A model generated the notes under the pieces. It had not been told where the DNA came from and did no database searches. It worked only from the letters and a program-made list of their open reading frames with translations. Positions 1 to 14,988 of a stretch of DNA of 64,000 bases are shown here, in pieces. The DNA is taken from positions 31,129 through 95,128 of the forward strand of contig CAWUSX010000036.1 in the NCBI GenBank assembly GCA_963924875.1, read 5' to 3'. Made by a program: the position numbers and the translations under genes. Each line of letters opens with the position of its first letter. Within the stretch, counting starts at the first letter, position 1. The stretch is from an uncultured Gammaproteobacteria bacterium. GTDB lineage: Bacteria > Pseudomonadota > Gammaproteobacteria > SZUA-229.

Positions 1-120
1 GTCTTTGCCGCCTGATAAGCCAAGCAAAATACGATCGCCTTCACGGATCATATTAAAGTCCATCAGGGCGCGACCAGTTTGACGCAATAAGCTTTTGGGT
101 GGTTTTATAAATTCAGACAT
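1..120 (-). CDS. ttcA: tRNA 2-thiocytidine biosynthesis protein TtcA, first 40 codons only (gene runs off the window edge)
   Basis: Reverse complement of 1-120 reads [40 protein letters not shown], with the ATG at 118-120. The DFNMI..GDRI...LSGGKD PP-loop context matches the TtcA N-terminus. Confidence 0.6.
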
Positions 121-193: not shown

Positions 194-222
194 ATAAAAA
201 ACCCAGCCTTCCTTGCCGGGTT
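194..222 (-). terminator. Rho-independent terminator of the candidate sRNA
   Basis: On the minus strand, AACCCGGC-AAGGAAG-GCUGGGUU forms an 8-bp stem with one G-U pair and a 7-nt loop containing GGA, followed by UUUUUAU. Confidence 0.6.
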
Positions 223-394
223 TTGGGCTTCCATTGCCCTGGTGATTGAGTATGGCGTTGTAGCTAGTTCCGTTTTTTCATATACTCCTGTATATATTCT
301 GCTCTTCCCTAGATTCCTTGTCCTTGCGCATCCTTTACTTGCTACGTCCTAACGATCCCTGTGTCCTTGTTGAAGCCATGTCCCTAATCCATGT
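194..394 (-). ncRNA. Candidate Csr/Rsm-family (CsrB/RsmY/RsmZ-like) CsrA-sequestering small RNA, about 200 nt
   Basis: There is no ORF here. The minus strand carries 13 GGA motifs in about 200 nt, mostly in CAAGGA, CAGGGA or AAGGAU contexts. It ends in an intrinsic terminator with GGA in the loop. A sigma70-like promoter and a GacA-box-like palindrome lie upstream. The ends are estimates. Confidence 0.6.
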
Positions 395-399
395 TGCAT

Positions 400-428
400 A
401 TTATGGGCAAGAGGCTTAAGTTTCACAA
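400..428 (-). promoter_or_regulatory. Putative sigma70 promoter for the candidate sRNA
   Basis: The minus strand reads TTGTGA (428-423), a 17-nt spacer, then CATAAT (405-400). The predicted transcription start is near 391-395. Confidence 0.4.
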
Positions 429-472
429 TCAGCTGAATAGGGAGCTTTATGTAAGGCTCGCTGCTGGTGTCA

Positions 473-490
473 TGTAGGATAATTCCTACA
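473..490. promoter_or_regulatory. GacA/UvrY-box-like palindrome (upstream activating sequence candidate)
   Basis: TGTAGGATAATTCCTACA is a perfect 7-bp inverted repeat with a 4-bp centre. It has the same 18-bp architecture as the TGTAAG-N6-CTTACA box found upstream of csrB/rsmY/rsmZ genes. It is centred about 88 bp upstream of the predicted sRNA start. Confidence 0.45.
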
Positions 491-531
491 TAATATAGGC
501 TTTGTTTCTCATGTATTAAAAAGGAGATGTC

Positions 532-1491
532 ATGATTGATTTATATCCGCCACTAAAACCATATGTTACCCATCATTTGCGAGTGGATGATCTGCATACC
601 TTGTATGTAGAAGAGTCGGGCAACCCACATGGATTGCCTGTTGTGTTTTTGCATGGTGGGCCAGGGACAGGGTGTGCACCTTACCATCGGCAATACTTTG
701 ATCCTGATGTATATCGCATTGTGCTGTTTGATCAGCGCGGTTGTGGCAAATCTACCCCGCATGCAAGTTTAATAAATAATACGACCTGGGATTTGGTGGC
801 AGATATCGAGCTTATTCGTCAGCATCTGCATATTGATCAATGGGTGGTATTTGGCGGTTCCTGGGGTTCAACGTTGGCGCTGTTGTATGCTGAAACGCAT
901 GCAGAATATGTATGCGGTCTGGTTCTGCGCGGCATTTTCCTGGCGAGAAATAAAGATGTGCAGTGGTTTTATCAGCAAGGTACAAATAGCCTGTTTCCTG
1001 ATTACTGGGAAAAATTTGTTGGGCCTATTCCTGTGAATGAGCGAGATGACATCATTGGTGCATATTATCGACAACTCACTGGCGATAATGAGGTGCAAAA
1101 ATTACGTGCGGCTAAGGCATGGTCGGTATGGGAAGGCATGACGGCGACGTTGCTAACCGATGAATCTGTGGTAGGTAGTTTTTCTGCATCACATGCAGCC
1201 CTGAGTATTGCGCGCATTGAGTGTCACTATTTCATAAATGATAGCTGGCTGAAGCCAAATCAAATTATTGCCGATATTGATAAAATTCGGCATATACCAG
1301 CGTATATAGTGCAGGGTCGATATGATGTGATTTGCCCTGTCGAGCAGGCATGGGAGCTATCTAAGGCATGGCCTGAGGCCGATTTAAGTATTGTTGCAGA
1401 TGCGGGGCATGCGGTTGTTGAACCAGGCATTACCGAATCTTTGTTGAAGGCGACGCGTGCAATAGCTGAAACCATTAAATATAAAAAGTGA
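532..1491 (+). CDS. pip: Proline iminopeptidase (prolyl aminopeptidase, alpha/beta hydrolase)
   Basis: 319-aa ORF with the HGGPG oxyanion motif, FDQRGCGKS, and the GGSWGS nucleophile elbow typical of Pip. Confidence 0.85.
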   Translation: MIDLYPPLKPYVTHHLRVDDLHTLYVEESGNPHGLPVVFLHGGPGTGCAPYHRQYFDPDVYRIVLFDQRGCGKSTPHASLINNTTWDLVADIELIRQHLHIDQWVVFGGSWGSTLALLYAETHAEYVCGLVLRGIFLARNKDVQWFYQQGTNSLFPDYWEKFVGPIPVNERDDIIGAYYRQLTGDNEVQKLRAAKAWSVWEGMTATLLTDESVVGSFSASHAALSIARIECHYFINDSWLKPNQIIADIDKIRHIPAYIVQGRYDVICPVEQAWELSKAWPEADLSIVADAGHAVVEPGITESLLKATRAIAETIKYKK

Positions 1492-2763: not shown

Positions 2764-3357
2764 ATGACTGATCGCACTGCGAAAGTCGCTCGTGACACCC
2801 TCGAGACGCAGATTACTGTTGAAGTAAATCTAGATGGAACAGGCAAGTCTGAATTCAATACAGGCGTGCCATTTCTGGATCACATGATGGATCAGATTGC
2901 ACGTCACGGGCTAATCGACTTGAACGTACAGGCTAAGGGTGATTTGCACATTGACGCACACCATACAGTTGAAGATATCGGCATTACATTGGGTCAGGCG
3001 GTAAATAAGGCCGTGGGCGACAAGAAAGGCATTACTCGTTACGGGCATGCCTATGTGCCATTGGATGAGGCCCTGTCTCGTGTGGTGATCGATTTTTCAG
3101 GCAGGCCAGGTTTAGAGATGCCCGTTGATTTCCCGCGTGCCAGTATCGGTGGTTTTGATGTCGACCTGTTTTTTGAGTTTTTTCAAGGGTTTACAAATCA
3201 CGCCAAAGTAACCTTGCATATCGACTCTATTCGAGGACGTAATGCGCACCATGTGGCAGAAACTATTTTTAAGGCATTTGGCCGCGCGCTACGCATGGCA
3301 CTAACGGCAGATGATCGAATGCAGGGTGTTATGCCATCTACCAAAGGAAGCCTGTAG
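2764..3357 (+). CDS. hisB: Imidazoleglycerol-phosphate dehydratase
   Basis: 197-aa ORF with RDT.ET.I.V.L.LDG, HH..E and other IGPD motifs. It is monofunctional in length. Confidence 0.93.
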
Positions 3358-3998
3358 TGGCGCAAATTGTTGTTGTTGACTATGGTATGGGCAATTTACG
3401 CTCAGTTGCTAAAGCAATCGAGCATGTGGCAAGTGGCCAGGATGTCATTATCTCCTCAAACGCTAAAGATATCGCCAATGCCGATCGTGTTGTATTCCCC
3501 GGACAAGGCGCTGCGCGTGATTGCATGCGTGAGCTGGCCGAGCGTGACTTGCAGCAAGTATTGCTTGCGGCGGCAAAAGAAAAGCCATTTTTAGGCATTT
3601 GCATGGGCATGCAGGTTCTACTGTCGCATAGCGAAGAAAATGACGGCATTGATTGCCTTGGTTTATATGATGGAGATGTGCGCTTTTTCGGCAATGATTT
3701 AAAGGGTGCGCAAGGTGAAAAACTTAAAATTCCACATATGGGCTGGAATGAGCTTAAGCACACAGGTAATCATCCTTTATGGCAAGGCATAAAGGACAAT
3801 AGTCGTTTTTACTTTGTGCACAGTTTTTATATAGATCCGCTTGATAAGCAGCTAATTGCCGCGACGACGGACTATGGTCTTGAGTTTGTTTCGGCAATCG
3901 CTAAAGACAATGTGTTTGCGCTGCAGTGTCATCCTGAGAAGAGTGCACAGGATGGTTTGCAGCTACTAAAAAACTTTTCGCAGTGGAGTGGCGCGTAA
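3357..3998 (+). CDS. hisH: Imidazole glycerol phosphate synthase, glutamine amidotransferase subunit
   Basis: 213-aa ORF with a GTG start overlapping the hisB stop. It has GMGN, GICMGMQ (catalytic Cys) and QCHPEKS motifs. Confidence 0.92.
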   Translation: MAQIVVVDYGMGNLRSVAKAIEHVASGQDVIISSNAKDIANADRVVFPGQGAARDCMRELAERDLQQVLLAAAKEKPFLGICMGMQVLLSHSEENDGIDCLGLYDGDVRFFGNDLKGAQGEKLKIPHMGWNELKHTGNHPLWQGIKDNSRFYFVHSFYIDPLDKQLIAATTDYGLEFVSAIAKDNVFALQCHPEKSAQDGLQLLKNFSQWSGA

Positions 3999-4070
3999 TT
4001 AGTATTACGTGAGCTTTATGTGCTTAGGCTTAATGAATTTTTATCAATAAATAAACAGGTGATTAGTTAA

Positions 4071-4811
4071 ATGTTACTTATACCCGCTATTGATTTGAAA
4101 GATGGACAATGTGTTCGCCTACGTCAAGGAATAATGGAAGATAATACGGTGTTCTCCGATGACCCAGTTGCGATGGCTGGTAAGTGGGTAGCCGCAGGTT
4201 GTCGTCGATTGCATCTAGTGGATTTGAATGGCGCCTTCGAAGGTAAGCCAGTCAATGCAGATGTGGTGCACCAAATAGTCGAGGCATACCCTGATGTGCC
4301 TGTGCAAATTGGTGGCGGTATTCGCGATGAAAAAACCATCGAAACCTATTTAGATGCCGGTGTTAAATATGTGATTATCGGTACTAAGGCGGTTACAGAT
4401 CCGCATTTTATAAGTGAAATTTGTGCGGGCTTCCCGGGGCATATTATTGTTGGCCTGGATGCGAAAGACGGTAAAGTAGCAACCGAAGGCTGGTCTAAAG
4501 TGTCGCGTCATGATGTGATTGATATGGCGCAGCGCTTTGAAGAAGACGGTGTGGAATCTATTATTTATACCGATATTTCACGTGATGGAATGATGCAGGG
4601 TGTGAATGTTGAAGCCACTGTTAAGTTGGCTCAAGCGATACATATTCCAGTCGTTGCATCGGGTGGTATTACCAATATGGATGATATTAAGGCATTGGTC
4701 GCCGTCGAAGACGAAGGCATAATGGGTGCGATTACAGGCCGTGCCATTTACGAAGGCACGTTAGATTTTGAAGCCGCTCAGAAATGGGCTGATGAGCAGG
4801 TACAGGGCTAA
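4071..4811 (+). CDS. hisA: ProFAR isomerase (1-(5-phosphoribosyl)-5-[(5-phosphoribosylamino)methylideneamino]imidazole-4-carboxamide isomerase)
   Basis: 246-aa [20 protein letters not shown] and the downstream GGGIR motif are typical of HisA. Confidence 0.92.
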
Positions 4812-4818
4812 ATTTAAC

Positions 4819-5592
4819 ATGTCATTAGCAAAACGAATTATACCCTGTCTGGATGTCCGCGATGGTCGCGTAGTAAAAGGCGTACAGTTTGTCGACATAC
4901 GTGATGCGGGTGATCCGGTAGAGGTCGCGCGTCGTTATGACCAGGAGGGTGCGGATGAAATCACATTTCTTGATATTACTGCGAGTTCAGATGATCGTGA
5001 AACGATTGTGCATGTTGTAGAGCAAGTGGCGGAACAGGTATTTATTCCGTTAACGGTTGGCGGTGGTATACGCACAGTTGATGATGTGCGTCGCATGTTG
5101 AACGCCGGTGCTGACAAGGTGGCGATTAATACAGCGGCGGTATTTAATCCAGAATTTGTAAAACAGGCATCGGATCGAGTAGGTTCGCAATGCATTGTTG
5201 TTGCCATCGATGCAAAAAAAGTCAGCCATGAAGGCGAGCCTAATCGATGGGAAATTTTCACTCACGGCGGGCGTAAGCCCACGGGTTTAGATGCCATCGA
5301 ATGGGCCAAAAAAATGGCTGAGTATGGTGCAGGTGAAATATTACTCACAAGTATGGATCGTGATGGTACCAAAACAGGTTTTGATCTGCAGTTAACGGCA
5401 GCGATTAGTGATGCGGTAAATATCCCTGTTATTGCATCGGGTGGCGTTGGTAACCTGGATCATTTGGCTGAAGGTGTGTTGCAGGGTAAAGCTGATGCTG
5501 TACTAGCCGCAAGCATATTCCATTTTGCGGAATACACGGTTGAAGAAGCTAAACGGCATATGGCCTCCAAAGGAATTGAAATGCGCCTATAA
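4819..5592 (+). CDS. hisF: Imidazole glycerol phosphate synthase, cyclase subunit
   Basis: The tracked ORF starts at 4768. The conserved N-terminus [13 protein letters not shown] begins at the ATG at 4819, just after the hisA stop. Confidence 0.92.
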
Positions 5593-9892: not shown

Positions 9893-12205
9893 TTAAAAAG
9901 TTTTTTTAAATCGAGTGATTTCCAAAAGTATCTTATTGGCTTTATTTATAATCACATTGTCTGATGATGATTGACATTTTACTGCATTCATTAAATCAAG
10001 GGATGCTTCATGAAGTGCTTCTGCACCAACAATGCAGGCAGATCCGGCTAGCTTGTGGATAATTTCATAAAGTCTGTCGTTGTCTTGTTTTACTTCACTA
10101 ATAGCCAATTCATTTTCAGGCAATAATTTCAAAAAATCAGAGAGCAATTCTTCGGCGATAACTTCATTACCTGCTACTGAATCAATAGCGGCTTTATGAT
10201 TGTATACTTTGGGTTGCCGCTTTTTTTTATCAGCAATTTGTGGAGAAGTGTTTTGATTATTGTTTGAAAGAGTATGGCGCCATTTTTCAATTATCAAAAA
10301 AAGCTGTTGTGGTTTATATGGTTTTGTTAAAAAATCATTCATGCCAGCAGCCAGAACTTGTTTTTGTATGTCAGGAAAAGCATGTGCTGTAAGCGCAATA
10401 ATGGGGATGTCTTTGTTATAATGTTTTATCTGGCGTATACTTTTGGCAGTTTCAATGCCACTCATGCCAGGCATTTCCAGATCCATTAAAATCAAATCAA
10501 ATAATTGTTGATGTGCTTTTTGTAGAGCGTCTTTGCCACTTTCAACCGAAACAACATTCGCACCTTCATTGCTGAGAAATGTGCTCGCAACTTTGAGATT
10601 AAGTAAATTATCATCAACTACAAGTACGGATAATTCTATTAAGTTTGAGTTGTGCTGTGTTTCCGCAGCTGGTTTACGGAGACTCCTTTGTTGTTGATTT
10701 GTAGTATGCACCTGTTTGGCAGGTTGAATGAAAATTTTAACAGTAAAGCAAGTGCCTTTTCCTGGTGTGCTGGTTATGCTAATAGAACCATTCATCATGG
10801 CTGCAAGGCGTTGGGTGATAATTAAGCCTAAGCCAGTGCCTCCATAGTTGCGCGTGATTGACGCGTCGCCTTGCTGAAATGGCTGAAAAAGATTTGCCTG
10901 ATGTTCTTCTGATATGCCAATGCCGGTATCCGTTACAATAATTTCCAGTGGAAATTCATTGTCTTGTATATTGGAATTGTCAGCTAGTTTTATACGTAAT
11001 TTTACCTGTCCATGTTCAGTAAACTTAATAGCATTCGCAAGTAAGTTGATTAAAATTTGACGTAGTCGAGTGGCATCTCCATGTATTTTTTCAGGTATGT
11101 TGTTGTCTATTTCAAAAAGCAGCTTAAGATCTTTCTCTTCAACTTTCGGTGAAAGTAAGGCGTAGATATCATCGACTACATGTTTCAAAATAAAATCAGA
11201 TTTTTCTAAATTAAATTTTCCCGCCTCAATTTTTGAGAAATCAAGAATGTCATTGATAATGGTAAGTAAGCTATCTGTGGAGCTAATAATGTTGTGTACG
11301 TATTCGGCTTGAATTTCATTTAGTTGTGTTTGTTCAAGTAGCCCGGCAAAACCGATAGCGGCATTCATTGGTGTGCGTATTTCATGACTCATAGTAGCCA
11401 GAAAATCACTTTTTGCTGTGTCGGCCGCCTTTGCGTCATTAGTCGCTTTTTCAAGCTTGTGCGTTCTTTCAATAACCAGTTTTTCAAGATCCAGACGATA
11501 TGATGTAAGTTCGTTATCATATGTCTGCAATTGATCAAGCATGGAGTTAAATTCATTTGTTAAAGTTCCCAGTTCATCGTCACTGGTTCGTCTGACGCGA
11601 TGGCTTAGATCCTTGTTTGTTGCAACTATAGATATGGTGCTCAGCAAGTTTTTTATAGGATCAGAAATTATGTGTTGTAGTTTTTTGGAAATAAGAGTGG
11701 CAACTATCATGGAAATAAGAAAGATTCCGATCCCCAGAAATGTTTGTTTTATCAGAAGACTGTGAGAACGACTCATATTTCCCGTAATGTAAAAATTACC
11801 GATGACTTCATTATGAATAATAATAGGTTGCTGTATATTTACGTCATTAAGGAAAAAATTCCATAGAGAAATATTTTTATTGTTTTCAACCTTGTGATTA
11901 ATTCTGCTGTATTTTGCAAGTATGTCACCATTGCGGATTTTTATACGCGCTTGCAATACATCGGTTTGAGTCGACAGGGTGGATAAAACTTCGGTGGCTG
12001 CTGCTTTGTCATGAAAGGTGATGGCCGCACTACTGTTTTCACCGAGTACGGTTGCTAATGCTCTAAGCCTGGTCTCTGCATCGCTACGGGCATAGCTGAC
12101 CTCCATAACCATAAATAGCAGGAAGCTCAATAAGAGTACTGCTGCTGCAGTAATTAAAATTATTGCTTCAATTTTTTGTCTTATAGAGCGTCTATTGAGA
12201 ATCAT
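9893..12205 (-). CDS. Hybrid sensor histidine kinase/response regulator (TM-periplasmic-TM input, HAMP, HisKA, HATPase, REC, C-terminal HPt)
   Basis: 770-aa ORF. It has the H-box SHEIRTPMN, the G-boxes DTGIGI and GGTGLGL, the receiver DLILMDLEMPGMSG, and the HPt motif HKLAGSA. Confidence 0.88.
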   Translation of the reverse strand: MILNRRSIRQKIEAIILITAAAVLLLSFLLFMVMEVSYARSDAETRLRALATVLGENSSAAITFHDKAAATEVLSTLSTQTDVLQARIKIRNGDILAKYSRINHKVENNKNISLWNFFLNDVNIQQPIIIHNEVIGNFYITGNMSRSHSLLIKQTFLGIGIFLISMIVATLISKKLQHIISDPIKNLLSTISIVATNKDLSHRVRRTSDDELGTLTNEFNSMLDQLQTYDNELTSYRLDLEKLVIERTHKLEKATNDAKAADTAKSDFLATMSHEIRTPMNAAIGFAGLLEQTQLNEIQAEYVHNIISSTDSLLTIINDILDFSKIEAGKFNLEKSDFILKHVVDDIYALLSPKVEEKDLKLLFEIDNNIPEKIHGDATRLRQILINLLANAIKFTEHGQVKLRIKLADNSNIQDNEFPLEIIVTDTGIGISEEHQANLFQPFQQGDASITRNYGGTGLGLIITQRLAAMMNGSISITSTPGKGTCFTVKIFIQPAKQVHTTNQQQRSLRKPAAETQHNSNLIELSVLVVDDNLLNLKVASTFLSNEGANVVSVESGKDALQKAHQQLFDLILMDLEMPGMSGIETAKSIRQIKHYNKDIPIIALTAHAFPDIQKQVLAAGMNDFLTKPYKPQQLFLIIEKWRHTLSNNNQNTSPQIADKKKRQPKVYNHKAAIDSVAGNEVIAEELLSDFLKLLPENELAISEVKQDNDRLYEIIHKLAGSACIVGAEALHEASLDLMNAVKCQSSSDNVIINKANKILLEITRFKKTF

Positions 12206-12768
12206 TTTGATGGTTTGTCATTGATAATATTGGCGAGAATTAATAATCGAGAGCTTAGTTCTAAATTATTTTCATGTGCTGCATTTAAGTTTATTGTGAT
12301 GCGAGTCTGGCCTTTTTCAAGGTTGAGCTCAATGATGCCGCCTGACTGTGCGAAATTTTTAATTTCACTGATTGTTAAAATAGGTTTTCCCCGAATATGA
12401 TTAAGTGTACTTACATAATTTCTTTTTTTTGATGCGGCTATGTATAACATGCCGCATTCATTTGGGGCTTCTATTGTTTTAACTATAAGGATTTTATTGT
12501 TTATTATTTTCCCTTGTAGGCGAGTAAGATCGATAACTAACTGATCTTCTCCTAGTGTACACAGAACAATTTTATCTTTGTCATCGTCTTCCAGGTTTTT
12601 TGGCCAGCGAGTAAATTTTGCAAAATTATATATAAAGGCGGCTTTAAACAGGCGCTGGTCTTGATTGGCGATAGCTGTGTTATAAACTGTGGAAATCACC
12701 AAAAAATAAATAAGTAGCATTGATTTTAGGATTGAGGATATCAAGTGACATACCTCGGAACTTTGCAT
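12202..12768 (-). CDS. YfiR-family (DUF4154) periplasmic protein
   Basis: 188-aa ORF whose stop overlaps the kinase start by 4 nt. The signature FIYNFAKFTRWP is typical of DUF4154/YfiR. An alternative start at 12720 (MLLIYFLV...) gives a cleaner signal peptide. Confidence 0.65.
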   Translation of the reverse strand: MQSSEVCHLISSILKSMLLIYFLVISTVYNTAIANQDQRLFKAAFIYNFAKFTRWPKNLEDDDKDKIVLCTLGEDQLVIDLTRLQGKIINNKILIVKTIEAPNECGMLYIAASKKRNYVSTLNHIRGKPILTISEIKNFAQSGGIIELNLEKGQTRITINLNAAHENNLELSSRLLILANIINDKPSK

Positions 12769-12900
12769 GCATTGTCATCGCCAGTAAGAATAACGATACA
12801 GTTATAAAAGGCGTAAGCTAACCATGTAAGGGCATTATCATGCCCTTGCGTAGCGTAGTCCACATTATATCCTTGTAATTGCATTTCCTGACTCATGCGA

Positions 12901-14988
12901 TTAGAGTTTAAACCTTGCCTCAATGTAAGCGTTTCGTTCTGCGAGCGGTAAGTCTCCAGGTATAGAGCGACCAGTATACTCAGATGCGTGTTTGTCGAAT
13001 AGGTTACGAATAGATGCTGCAAATTCCCATGCTTTAGAATGAACGTAGCGAAGCGTTGTATCGGCTATTGTATAAGCAGCCAGATCGTCTCTAGTATCAT
13101 TTGCGCCACGAGGTCGTTCACCTATCCAGCTGGCCTGTAAGTTCCAGTTCCAGTTACCAGATAAATTACAGTCTGTGCGCAAATAGGCTTCCTGTTTTGC
13201 TTCCTGAATAGCGGCACTGCTATCGTCAGGATTGCGCAAAGTGAAGTTGCCTGAGATGCTGATTTGTTTTGAGGCTTGCCAGTGTGCATCAAGCTCTAGT
13301 CCTCGAATGGTGTAGTTACCTGTGTTGTGAAATTGATCTTTAGATAAACCAGATACGGTAACTGGGCTAATCAGGTCGGTCTGCTCGAAATAAAACAGGT
13401 TTAAATTGAGGAGCAGAATATTCGTTGGTGTGTAGGTAAAGGCAAGATCAATGGTTTGCGAGCGTTCAGGGTTCAGATCTGGGTTGGGCAAAAAACGTGA
13501 CGATTCGACAAAAAGTTCCTGATAAGACGGTGCTCTAAACGCCTGACCATAAATGAGTTTGCTGGTGAGCTTATTGGTGGTTTGCCATACCAGTGCCACT
13601 CGAGGGTTTGTGCTGTTGCCAAAGTCTGAATAATTATCATAACGTGCGCCAGCGGTGAGCTCCCAGTCAGGCGCAAAGCTCCAGGCGTCTTTCAGAAAAA
13701 TGTGGTTTATGCGGCGTTTCCTTTCTGGCGCAAATGCATATGAGCTATCGGACAGGTCGACTAGTGAGCTGCCGGGAAGGATGGTTGAGTCATCTGGAGC
13801 GGTACCATAATTTTGTAGGTGTTCAACAGAATATAAATCCTGCAAGGTATGTCCACCGCCTATGCGTATCGCGTGATCGTGGATGCCGCTGTACAGTGTG
13901 CTGGCTTCAAACATAATACGTCGCTCGGCAGAGCGGTTAATATTGATAAGGCCGTCAGGGTAGGTGCCGCTGCTATCGGTAAAGCCGGGAGGGCGCTCCT
14001 GAAATCCATCGCCTGAGCTGTAATATAGATGCTGAATGCGTAGTTCAGTACCCAGCGTCCAGTTTTTGCTGAGGTTGTCGTTATCGTAGTACAGGTCGAG
14101 ATTAAGTCGCTCGTCTTCACCCTGAGTAACCGGGTCGAGTACGCCATATCCGGTGAGGCCGATTTCAAGATCGCTATGGCTCATGTAATCGGCCTGAAGT
14201 CGCCAGTGATTTTTTGCGGCAGAGAAACGAATATCCTGATTGCCCCAGCCGTACTGGGCATTATCCGGTGAAAGACTGGCGTTAGTTGCAAATGTCTGGT
14301 CTTCAAAAGCGGCCTGACGGTCTACGGGAATTAAGGGGTTGTAGCCCTCGGTATCATATAGCTCTGCGGTAAAGCCTATTTCAAAACCTTGCCAGTTGTC
14401 GCCATGTTGTATCCAGGCGGTTTTGGTATTAAAGCTACCTGTTCGGATGCCTGCTTCCGAATGTGTAATTTTCCCCGCTGTTTTAGTGATAACGTTTATG
14501 ACGCCCGCAATAGCATCGGCACCAAATAAAGCAGAGCCCGGGCCGCGAATGATTTCTATGCGCTCAATAGCACTAGCGGGTATACCTTTCCAGAAAATGC
14601 CAAAACCCCAAATCAGATCACGCATTGGGTTGCCGTTTACCATGAGTAATGTTTGTGTCGCATTAGCGCCGCGAAAATGCACTAGTGGCCGTGTACCAAA
14701 GGCGTCTGTTCTTATGTGAATGCCTGGAACACCTTGTAATGCCTCGGCCAAATTGGTCGCACCGGTGGCTTTTAGGTCGTCTGAGGTAATTACAGATATA
14801 ACGGCGGGTGCTTTACTGGCGGTACGTTTTGAGACTGTTGCAATTGTTGTTTCAAGGCTTATTAGATCTTCAAGGCTTAACGATATAAATCGATCTAATT
14901 GCTCGTCTGCACCGCATGAGGCAATAGGTGAGTACGAGATTGCAAAGCATAAACTGAAAAGTGCTGTATGTAAGCGAACTTTATTCAT
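12901..14988 (-). CDS. TonB-dependent outer-membrane receptor
   Basis: 695-aa ORF with a signal peptide, a plug domain (motifs GVPG, RG, and the IERIEIIRGPGSALFGADAIAGVINVITK region) and a long beta-barrel. Confidence 0.88.
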   Translation of the reverse strand: MNKVRLHTALFSLCFAISYSPIASCGADEQLDRFISLSLEDLISLETTIATVSKRTASKAPAVISVITSDDLKATGATNLAEALQGVPGIHIRTDAFGTRPLVHFRGANATQTLLMVNGNPMRDLIWGFGIFWKGIPASAIERIEIIRGPGSALFGADAIAGVINVITKTAGKITHSEAGIRTGSFNTKTAWIQHGDNWQGFEIGFTAELYDTEGYNPLIPVDRQAAFEDQTFATNASLSPDNAQYGWGNQDIRFSAAKNHWRLQADYMSHSDLEIGLTGYGVLDPVTQGEDERLNLDLYYDNDNLSKNWTLGTELRIQHLYYSSGDGFQERPPGFTDSSGTYPDGLININRSAERRIMFEASTLYSGIHDHAIRIGGGHTLQDLYSVEHLQNYGTAPDDSTILPGSSLVDLSDSSYAFAPERKRRINHIFLKDAWSFAPDWELTAGARYDNYSDFGNSTNPRVALVWQTTNKLTSKLIYGQAFRAPSYQELFVESSRFLPNPDLNPERSQTIDLAFTYTPTNILLLNLNLFYFEQTDLISPVTVSGLSKDQFHNTGNYTIRGLELDAHWQASKQISISGNFTLRNPDDSSAAIQEAKQEAYLRTDCNLSGNWNWNLQASWIGERPRGANDTRDDLAAYTIADTTLRYVHSKAWEFAASIRNLFDKHASEYTGRSIPGDLPLAERNAYIEARFKL

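Follow-up and report, generated by a model that had tools for sequence, protein, structure and literature searches.

A predicted Csr/Rsm-class small RNA gene divergent from pip in uncultured Gammaproteobacteria

Does the gap between ttcA and pip in an uncultured gammaproteobacterium harbor a gene for a regulatory RNA? The Gac/Csr(Rsm) switch governs lifestyle and carbon-flow decisions in model Gammaproteobacteria. The question arises from a 64,000-nt stretch of contig CAWUSX010000036.1 (hereafter the window, meaning this whole 64-kb stretch), in which the original prediction had placed a complete Gac-controlled sponge RNA locus in the ttcA-pip gap, i.e. a small RNA (sRNA) rich in GGA motifs that would titrate the translational repressor CsrA/RsmA. 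We compared this locus with related genomic and metagenomic loci, and the comparison supports the claim of a complete locus: the sequence hallmarks of such RNAs are all present, and their conservation extends over 42 homologues. Minus 394-194 is most likely an independent sRNA gene of ~200 nt that belongs to the Csr/Rsm class, is activated by a GacA-type regulator and titrates CsrA. Judged by its sequence, it represents a new family within a well-known functional class and falls into none of the Csr/Rsm families of Rfam.

GGA motifs, conservation and fold of the predicted RNA

Five sequence criteria have been described for CsrA-regulating sRNAs, namely an intergenic position, a high density of A(R)GGA motifs, a rho-independent terminator, GGA motifs in loops or otherwise unpaired, and an upstream site of 18 bp that is conserved (Kulkarni et al. 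2006, PMC1488887). Minus 394-194 displays all five. Its position is intergenic, within a ttcA-pip gap of 411 bp (121-531). That this gap lacks a credible open reading frame (ORF) was borne out by the absence of any conserved ORF in it across the sRNA family; a 59-aa ORF on the plus strand (173-352) was considered and rejected, because 1-nt indels shift its frame throughout the family.

The region carries exactly the 13 GGA motifs originally counted on the minus strand, in all of the sequence contexts then listed (CAAGGAC and CAAGGAA twice each, CAGGGAU, AAAGGAUG and UUAGGAC). Sliding windows over the 64 kb gave a background of 1.5-1.8 GGA per 201 nt on either strand; the runner-up 201-nt window contained 8, and the sRNA region formed the sole peak of at least 9. 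The motifs thus make the region a unique outlier in the window, and they also exceed what its own sequence would yield by chance, although by less than first proposed. The excess over chance stood, whereas the original expectation of about three motifs did not: the region is rich in A+G (130/201 nt), which raises the expected count to 5.6-6.8, and shuffles of its own composition provide the fairer figure. Mononucleotide shuffles contained 5.6±1.9 GGA (3/5000 reached 13) and dinucleotide shuffles 6.8±1.7 (2/5000 reached 13). Folding the RNA and counting the exposed motifs, as had been proposed, showed that 9 of the 13 GGA are fully unpaired in the minimum-free-energy fold and that four lie in hairpin loops, including the loop of the terminator. 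The mean unpaired probability of the GGA motifs was 0.75, compared with 0.50 over all nucleotides of the window RNA.

Among GTDB species representatives, the nearest are uncultured Gammaproteobacteria whose Pip is 72-76% identical, and an identical Pip protein was found only on a Logan metagenome assembly. All 80 pip loci were screened for GGA density and the presence of the 18-bp upstream box. Eight close loci (L002-L009) contained 11-16 GGA per 150 nt on the minus strand just upstream of pip, beside a TGTAGG-N6-CCTACA box. The window RNA and its eight close homologues, nine copies in synteny with pip, share a mean column identity of 84%, at Pip identities of 62-76% and GC contents from 0.40 to 0.54. 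Metagenome contigs were scanned with an RNA-only pattern derived from the invariant core GCTACANNGCCANNNNCAATCACC, which returned 82 loci that split cleanly into 42 with 12-16 GGA around the match and 40 chance matches. Among the latter, 38 had at most 5 GGA, and the two exceptions (10 and 8 GGA) lay in coding sequence without a box.

Deduplicated metagenomic loci, the window and the eight close homologues were combined into an alignment of 42 distinct sequences (A2). For each of the 13 GGA motifs of the window, 37-42 of the 42 sequences have a GGA in the same columns, and the members carry 12-17 GGA each. Nearly all indel runs (182/200) are 1 nt long, and the longest ORFs (10-50 aa) are not conserved; the region is therefore non-coding. 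With the GGA columns kept, the indels so short and the ORFs so small, the alignment argues for a conserved non-coding RNA in which the GGA motifs are what selection preserves. The sequence features of a CsrA-regulating sRNA are under purifying selection across the 42 homologues.

The consensus fold was computed on A2, and two local hairpins were added by hand (Table 1). Its pairs are occupied in 95.6% of cells, compared with 35-39% when the partners are slid, and double-sided changes occur in eight pairs (2.7±1.2 in shuffles; 0/500 shuffles reached eight). The minimum-free-energy fold and a fold of nine sequences contained a 5′ hairpin (CAUG...CAUG), which we dropped in favor of the long-range helix P1, because an A-to-U change in four sequences breaks the hairpin and is compensated in P1 (AU to UA). 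The second long-range helix, P2, is almost invariant, so that it is backed by conservation alone. At the 3′ end, the predicted terminator with its GGA-presenting 7-nt loop AAGGAAG was found, with a 10-bp stem and a U-run; a simple terminator scan missed it because the stem takes up part of the T-run.

Promoter, upstream box and proposed mechanism

The TTGTGA-17-CATAAT promoter of the original prediction was recovered on the minus strand at 428-400 by a promoter scan. In an alignment of 43 upstream regions, the -10 hexamer CATAAT hardly varies while the -35 shows no conservation, a combination that suits an activator-dependent promoter. The proposed 18-bp inverted repeat is likewise present, and its center lies ~88 nt before the predicted sRNA start, as stated. 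It is not the perfect palindrome that had been described: only the 7-nt arms TGTAGGA and TCCTACA are complementary, since the central TAAT is not self-complementary.

The GacA box has been defined as TGTAAGN6CTTACA (PMC3171408, PMC8523701), from which the window's box differs by one change per arm. In the aligned upstream regions, TGTAGG and CCTACA are nearly invariant; about 36 of the 42 family members retain the arms TGTA[AG]G and C[CT]TACA, while the N6 spacer is free to vary, a pattern expected of a dimeric protein site rather than of an RNA hairpin. Canonical half-sites (TGTAAG or CTTACA) are present in some members. The distance from the box center to the -10 is 76 nt in 39 of 40 unique members, whereas the box and the pip ATG are 12-310 nt apart. 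This fixed phasing with the -10, combined with a variable distance to pip, assigns the box to the sRNA promoter. The alignment of relatives suggested as a check on the original prediction has thus shown the GGA motifs, the spacing to the -10 and the box arms to be conserved. Between box and promoter, the conserved elements at 427-456 (minus) may mark the site of a second regulator, or an IHF-like site at the -40 dyad, which has one mismatch to the IHF consensus in either orientation.

We infer that the gene is transcribed, that its RNA binds CsrA, that a GacA/UvrY orthologue recognizes the box and that the organism has csrA and gacA, and propose the following mechanism. A phosphorylated response regulator of the GacA/UvrY type would bind TGTAGG-N6-CCTACA near -88 and activate a promoter whose -10 (CATAAT) is good but whose -35 is poor. 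The transcript would stop at the intrinsic terminator and display ~13 GGA motifs, most of them single-stranded or in hairpin loops, framed by the two conserved long-range helices. These motifs would titrate dimers of the translational repressor CsrA/RsmA off their mRNA targets.

A covariance model built from A2 (R1) matched only this locus in the 64-kb window (214.6 bits), and it also detected shorter RNAs in Thioalkalivibrio denitrificans (33.4 bits, E=4e-8) and at loci L017, L048 and L012. In the more distant loci (L012, L018, L039, L046, L048, L049 and L052), the same box lies upstream of pip, and the RNA that follows it is shorter, rich in GGA and terminated. The short form of the cultured T. 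denitrificans ALJD (L018, 3662-3906, minus) spans ~130 nt, is divergent from pip, has its box at an unchanged position, retains the CTCACAnnAAnC element, and presents GGA in three hairpin loops. Tandem extra copies were found as well, between pip and ttcA, at loci L112 (651-1436, minus), L137 (1563-1696, plus) and L121 (882-956, plus). Locus L112 contains three consecutive sRNA genes, of which the second has a full box, a -10 and a terminator of its own, and L137 and L121 each contain a short second copy preceded by a CCTACA half-site. Multi-copy Rsm sRNAs, each with its own box, are known in other bacteria. A separate GGA cluster was seen at locus L046 (3380-3535, plus; 12 GGA in 150 nt), convergent with the short-form sRNA of that locus, in a genome of 66% GC and with no box seen; it could be a chance cluster or another sRNA.

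In every member with enough flanking sequence, including those found with the RNA-only pattern, pip is the divergent upstream neighbor, and this pairing persists where Pip identity falls to about 55-60% and spans several gammaproteobacterial orders. On the plus strand of the window (467-494), a pip promoter-like sequence (GTGTCA-16-CATAAT) flanks the GacA-type box on both sides, with pip starting at 532. Because the box lies inside this promoter-like site, and in 29 of 40 members is separated from the pip start codon by only 12-59 nt, its occupancy may also affect transcription of pip. A functional pairing, in which a single GacA-type box would control both promoters by activating the sponge and occluding or modulating the overlapping pip promoter, is a speculative extension that we think improbable. 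If it were true, prolyl aminopeptidase would be a direct and ancient member of the Gac regulon, in parallel with the LuxR-solo/pip pairs of plant-associated bacteria.

Points against the assignment and alternative explanations

Several observations weigh against assigning the RNA to a Gac/Csr system, the first being the lack of recognition by Rfam. With Rfam 15 at gathering thresholds, no match was obtained in the whole window. At relaxed settings, the only related match was RsmY, which reached 12.3 bits against a gathering threshold of 57 (E=0.56 with 216 nt searched) in an alignment that covers the CAGGA hairpin and the terminator, and the CsrB, CsrC, RsmX and PrrB_RsmZ models had no match in the sRNA region at E up to 10. 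Related loci behaved alike, with no match at gathering thresholds in 14 loci and no Csr/Rsm match at E up to 10 in six short-form loci. That generic covariance models might not call the RNA had been foreseen in the original prediction.

The partners of the switch form a second group of such observations. Searches with the Escherichia coli proteins (tblastn) found neither csrA nor gacA/uvrY in the 64-kb window. The only UvrY match there is the receiver domain of a hybrid kinase (9896-12205), which is not GacS, being of a YfiR-like-associated type and below the BarA cut-off. No csrA was found by tblastn with the E. coli protein in 1.2 Mb of related loci, where the sole strong UvrY-like match (L122, 40% identity) lies on an unrelated, chance-match contig. 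Expression of csrA has been reported in Thioalkalivibrio nitratis (PMC8092127), and the genus of the short-form homologue therefore has a presumed partner. Two further points concern the box and the fold: the half-site is TGTAGG and not the canonical TGTAAG, and most helices are backed by conservation, not covariation. A TGTAGG half-site variant is reported upstream of csrA1 in Marinomonas (PMC8523701).

The alternative that survives best retains the GGA-rich sponge sRNA and has the box bound by another regulator of the LuxR/NarL family, for example one that mainly serves pip. Such a regulator would suit the invariant divergent position of pip, the short distance from box to pip ATG in most members and the promoter-like site that brackets the box in the window, but the box is phased with the -10 of the sRNA and not with pip. 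Adjacent LuxR-family solos are known to target pip genes (PMC3909224), yet no LuxR-solo gene flanks pip in the window, where its neighbors are ttcA and dtd. The half-site is one position per arm off the canonical GacA box, but its 18-bp layout matches the GacA box exactly, canonical arms recur in some members, and the second tandem copy at L112 has its own box without being adjacent to pip. We regard this alternative as unlikely.

Still less credible is a base-pairing sRNA of the Hfq/ProQ type, or a sponge for a protein other than CsrA, in which GGA/AGGA would act as Shine-Dalgarno mimics that pair with CU-rich targets. The purine-rich GGA motifs do resemble Shine-Dalgarno sequences, and a seed or chaperone site could be provided by CAAUCACC, which is invariant, single-stranded and precedes the 3′ hairpins; such sRNAs, however, normally conserve one seed and not a dozen repeats, and 13 separately conserved GGA motifs together with a GacA-type box and tandem paralogues form the signature specific to Csr/Rsm sponges.

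That the RNA is a cis-acting leader or attenuator of ttcA has very little probability. The two share a strand, in the window only 75 nt separate the RNA from the downstream ttcA ATG (ttcA start at 120, minus), and ttcA is the immediate downstream gene in many relatives. Across the family, however, the downstream distance from the RNA to ttcA varies from ~70 nt to ~9 kb, or the flank lacks ttcA; in L002, L003, L006 and many metagenomic members the gene is missing from the flank or up to 9 kb away, and the RNA is unchanged. Further sRNA copies intervene before ttcA in L112, L121 and L137, and the strong terminator has no conserved competing anti-terminator. We rejected the leader because ttcA is not always adjacent to the RNA, which is constant; the RNA is independent of ttcA. 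A functionless purine-rich spacer or decayed coding remnant, which the A+G richness and the higher GGA expectation that follows from it would favor, is refuted by the conservation data (84% column identity in the RNA vs 62-76% identity in Pip, and 42 homologues in which the motifs are invariant, base pairs change in a compensatory way and the promoter is conserved) and has next to no probability.

Locus context and comparison with known systems

An independent Csr/Rsm-class sRNA gene is the reading we prefer, and its features are listed in Table 1 with those of the flanking genes.

Table 1. Predicted sRNA gene, its promoter region and the adjacent genes, in window coordinates.
Feature	Position	Strand	Remarks
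Predicted sRNA, ~200 nt	194..394	-	13 GGA, 10 in A(R)GGA context; 214.6 bits against family model R1
GacA/UvrY-type box TGTAGGATAATTCCTACA	473..490	.	7-nt inverted arms, variable center; unique in window
Promoter-upstream element CCTTACATAAAGC (consensus C[CT][TG]ACAnnAAGC)	444..456	-	Conserved columns in 43 upstream regions; resembles an extra CYTACA half-site
Dyad TTCAGCTGATT (consensus ATCA[AG]CTGAT)	427..437	-	Near -40, overlaps the weak -35; CTGAT nearly invariant in 43 upstream regions
Sigma-70-type promoter: -35-like TTGTGA (428-423), 17-nt spacer, -10 CATAAT (405-400)	400..428	-	Promoter scan
P1 5′ arm AUGGC	375..379	-	Long-range helix with 256-252 (GCCAU); 100% paired in 42 sequences
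P2 5′ arm GUAGC	341..345	-	Long-range helix with 264-260 (GCUAC); 100% paired, almost invariant
Hairpin UAUAC-AGGA-GUAUA	281..294	-	GGA in tetraloop, unpaired probability 1.00; stem 83% paired across family
P2 3′ arm GCUAC (264-260) and P1 3′ arm GCCAU (256-252), then invariant CAAUCACC	252..264	-	Invariant block in A2
Local hairpin with AAGGA loop			Presents GGA; consensus fold, added local hairpin
Hairpin P3 GGGC-AAUGGAA-GCCC (family GGGC-AAUGGAA-GYCC)	225..239	-	GGA in loop; 100% paired, two pairs with double changes
Intrinsic terminator AAAACCCGGC-AAGGAAG-GCUGGGUUUU and U-run	196..224	-	Loop presents GGA; 99% paired, compensatory changes in 5/9 pairs
ttcA 5′ end	1..120	-	NF007972; same strand as sRNA, downstream of RNA
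pip (prolyl aminopeptidase)	532..1491	+	TIGR01249 at 438 bits; divergent upstream neighbor of sRNA gene

The gene dtd follows pip, and NCBIfam confirmed the identities of TtcA, Pip and dtd. A hisB-hisH-hisA-hisF operon (2764-5592, plus) and, further downstream, tatC and gpmI make up an ordinary housekeeping context. The window also contains a cluster at 9896-14988 (minus) that is unrelated to the sRNA finding and comprises the hybrid histidine kinase ('YfiR-like protein-associated'), a YfiR-like periplasmic protein of the TOL_0243 family and a TonB-dependent receptor of the TOL_0244 family.

Placing the RNA in the Csr/Rsm class would extend the Gac/Csr(Rsm) switch to a wide range of uncultured Gammaproteobacteria, most of them from sediments or mats, and to Thioalkalivibrio. 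No Csr/Rsm sRNA is annotated in the organisms that carry it, and none is detected in them by Rfam. The 42-member alignment, with its consensus structure and covariance model, could seed a new Rfam family and improve the annotation of metagenome-assembled genomes, and the homologue in the cultured T. denitrificans offers a route to its study in a chemolithoautotroph. The current concept of sponge action is unchanged by the finding. Our literature search returned nothing relevant on an Rsm sRNA beside pip or on Csr sRNAs in Thioalkalivibrio.

Among known systems, the Marinomonas mediterranea CsrB/CsrC RNAs (PMC8523701) are comparable by description, since their prediction in this marine, non-model gammaproteobacterium likewise relied on a GacA box, ANGGA motifs and a terminator; their dependence on PpoS/PpoR (BarA/UvrY) was shown by RNA-seq (PMC8523701), whereas the window RNA is a prediction from sequence. 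The CsrB/CsrC RNAs of Enterobacteria, Vibrio and Shewanella (RF00018, RF00084) are likewise sponges with many A(R)GGA motifs, activated by BarA/UvrY and identified with the same five criteria (PMC1488887, PMC3171408), but CsrB-type RNAs have 350-420 nt and ~18-22 sites, compared with ~200 nt and 13 sites in the window RNA. Closer in size are RsmY, RsmZ and RsmX of Pseudomonas (RF00195, RF00166, RF02144), GacA-dependent sRNAs of 100-200 nt that present repeated GGA in loops or single strands, end at an intrinsic terminator, are preceded by an 18-bp palindromic activating sequence (TGTAAG-N6-CTTACA) and occur as several paralogues per genome. The window family differs from them in having no significant Rfam match, in its TGTAGG/CCTACA half-sites, in the P1 and P2 helices that enclose the GGA-rich core, and in being always divergent from pip. 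These two long-range closing helices and the fixed divergent pairing with pip are the only unusual traits of the sRNA.

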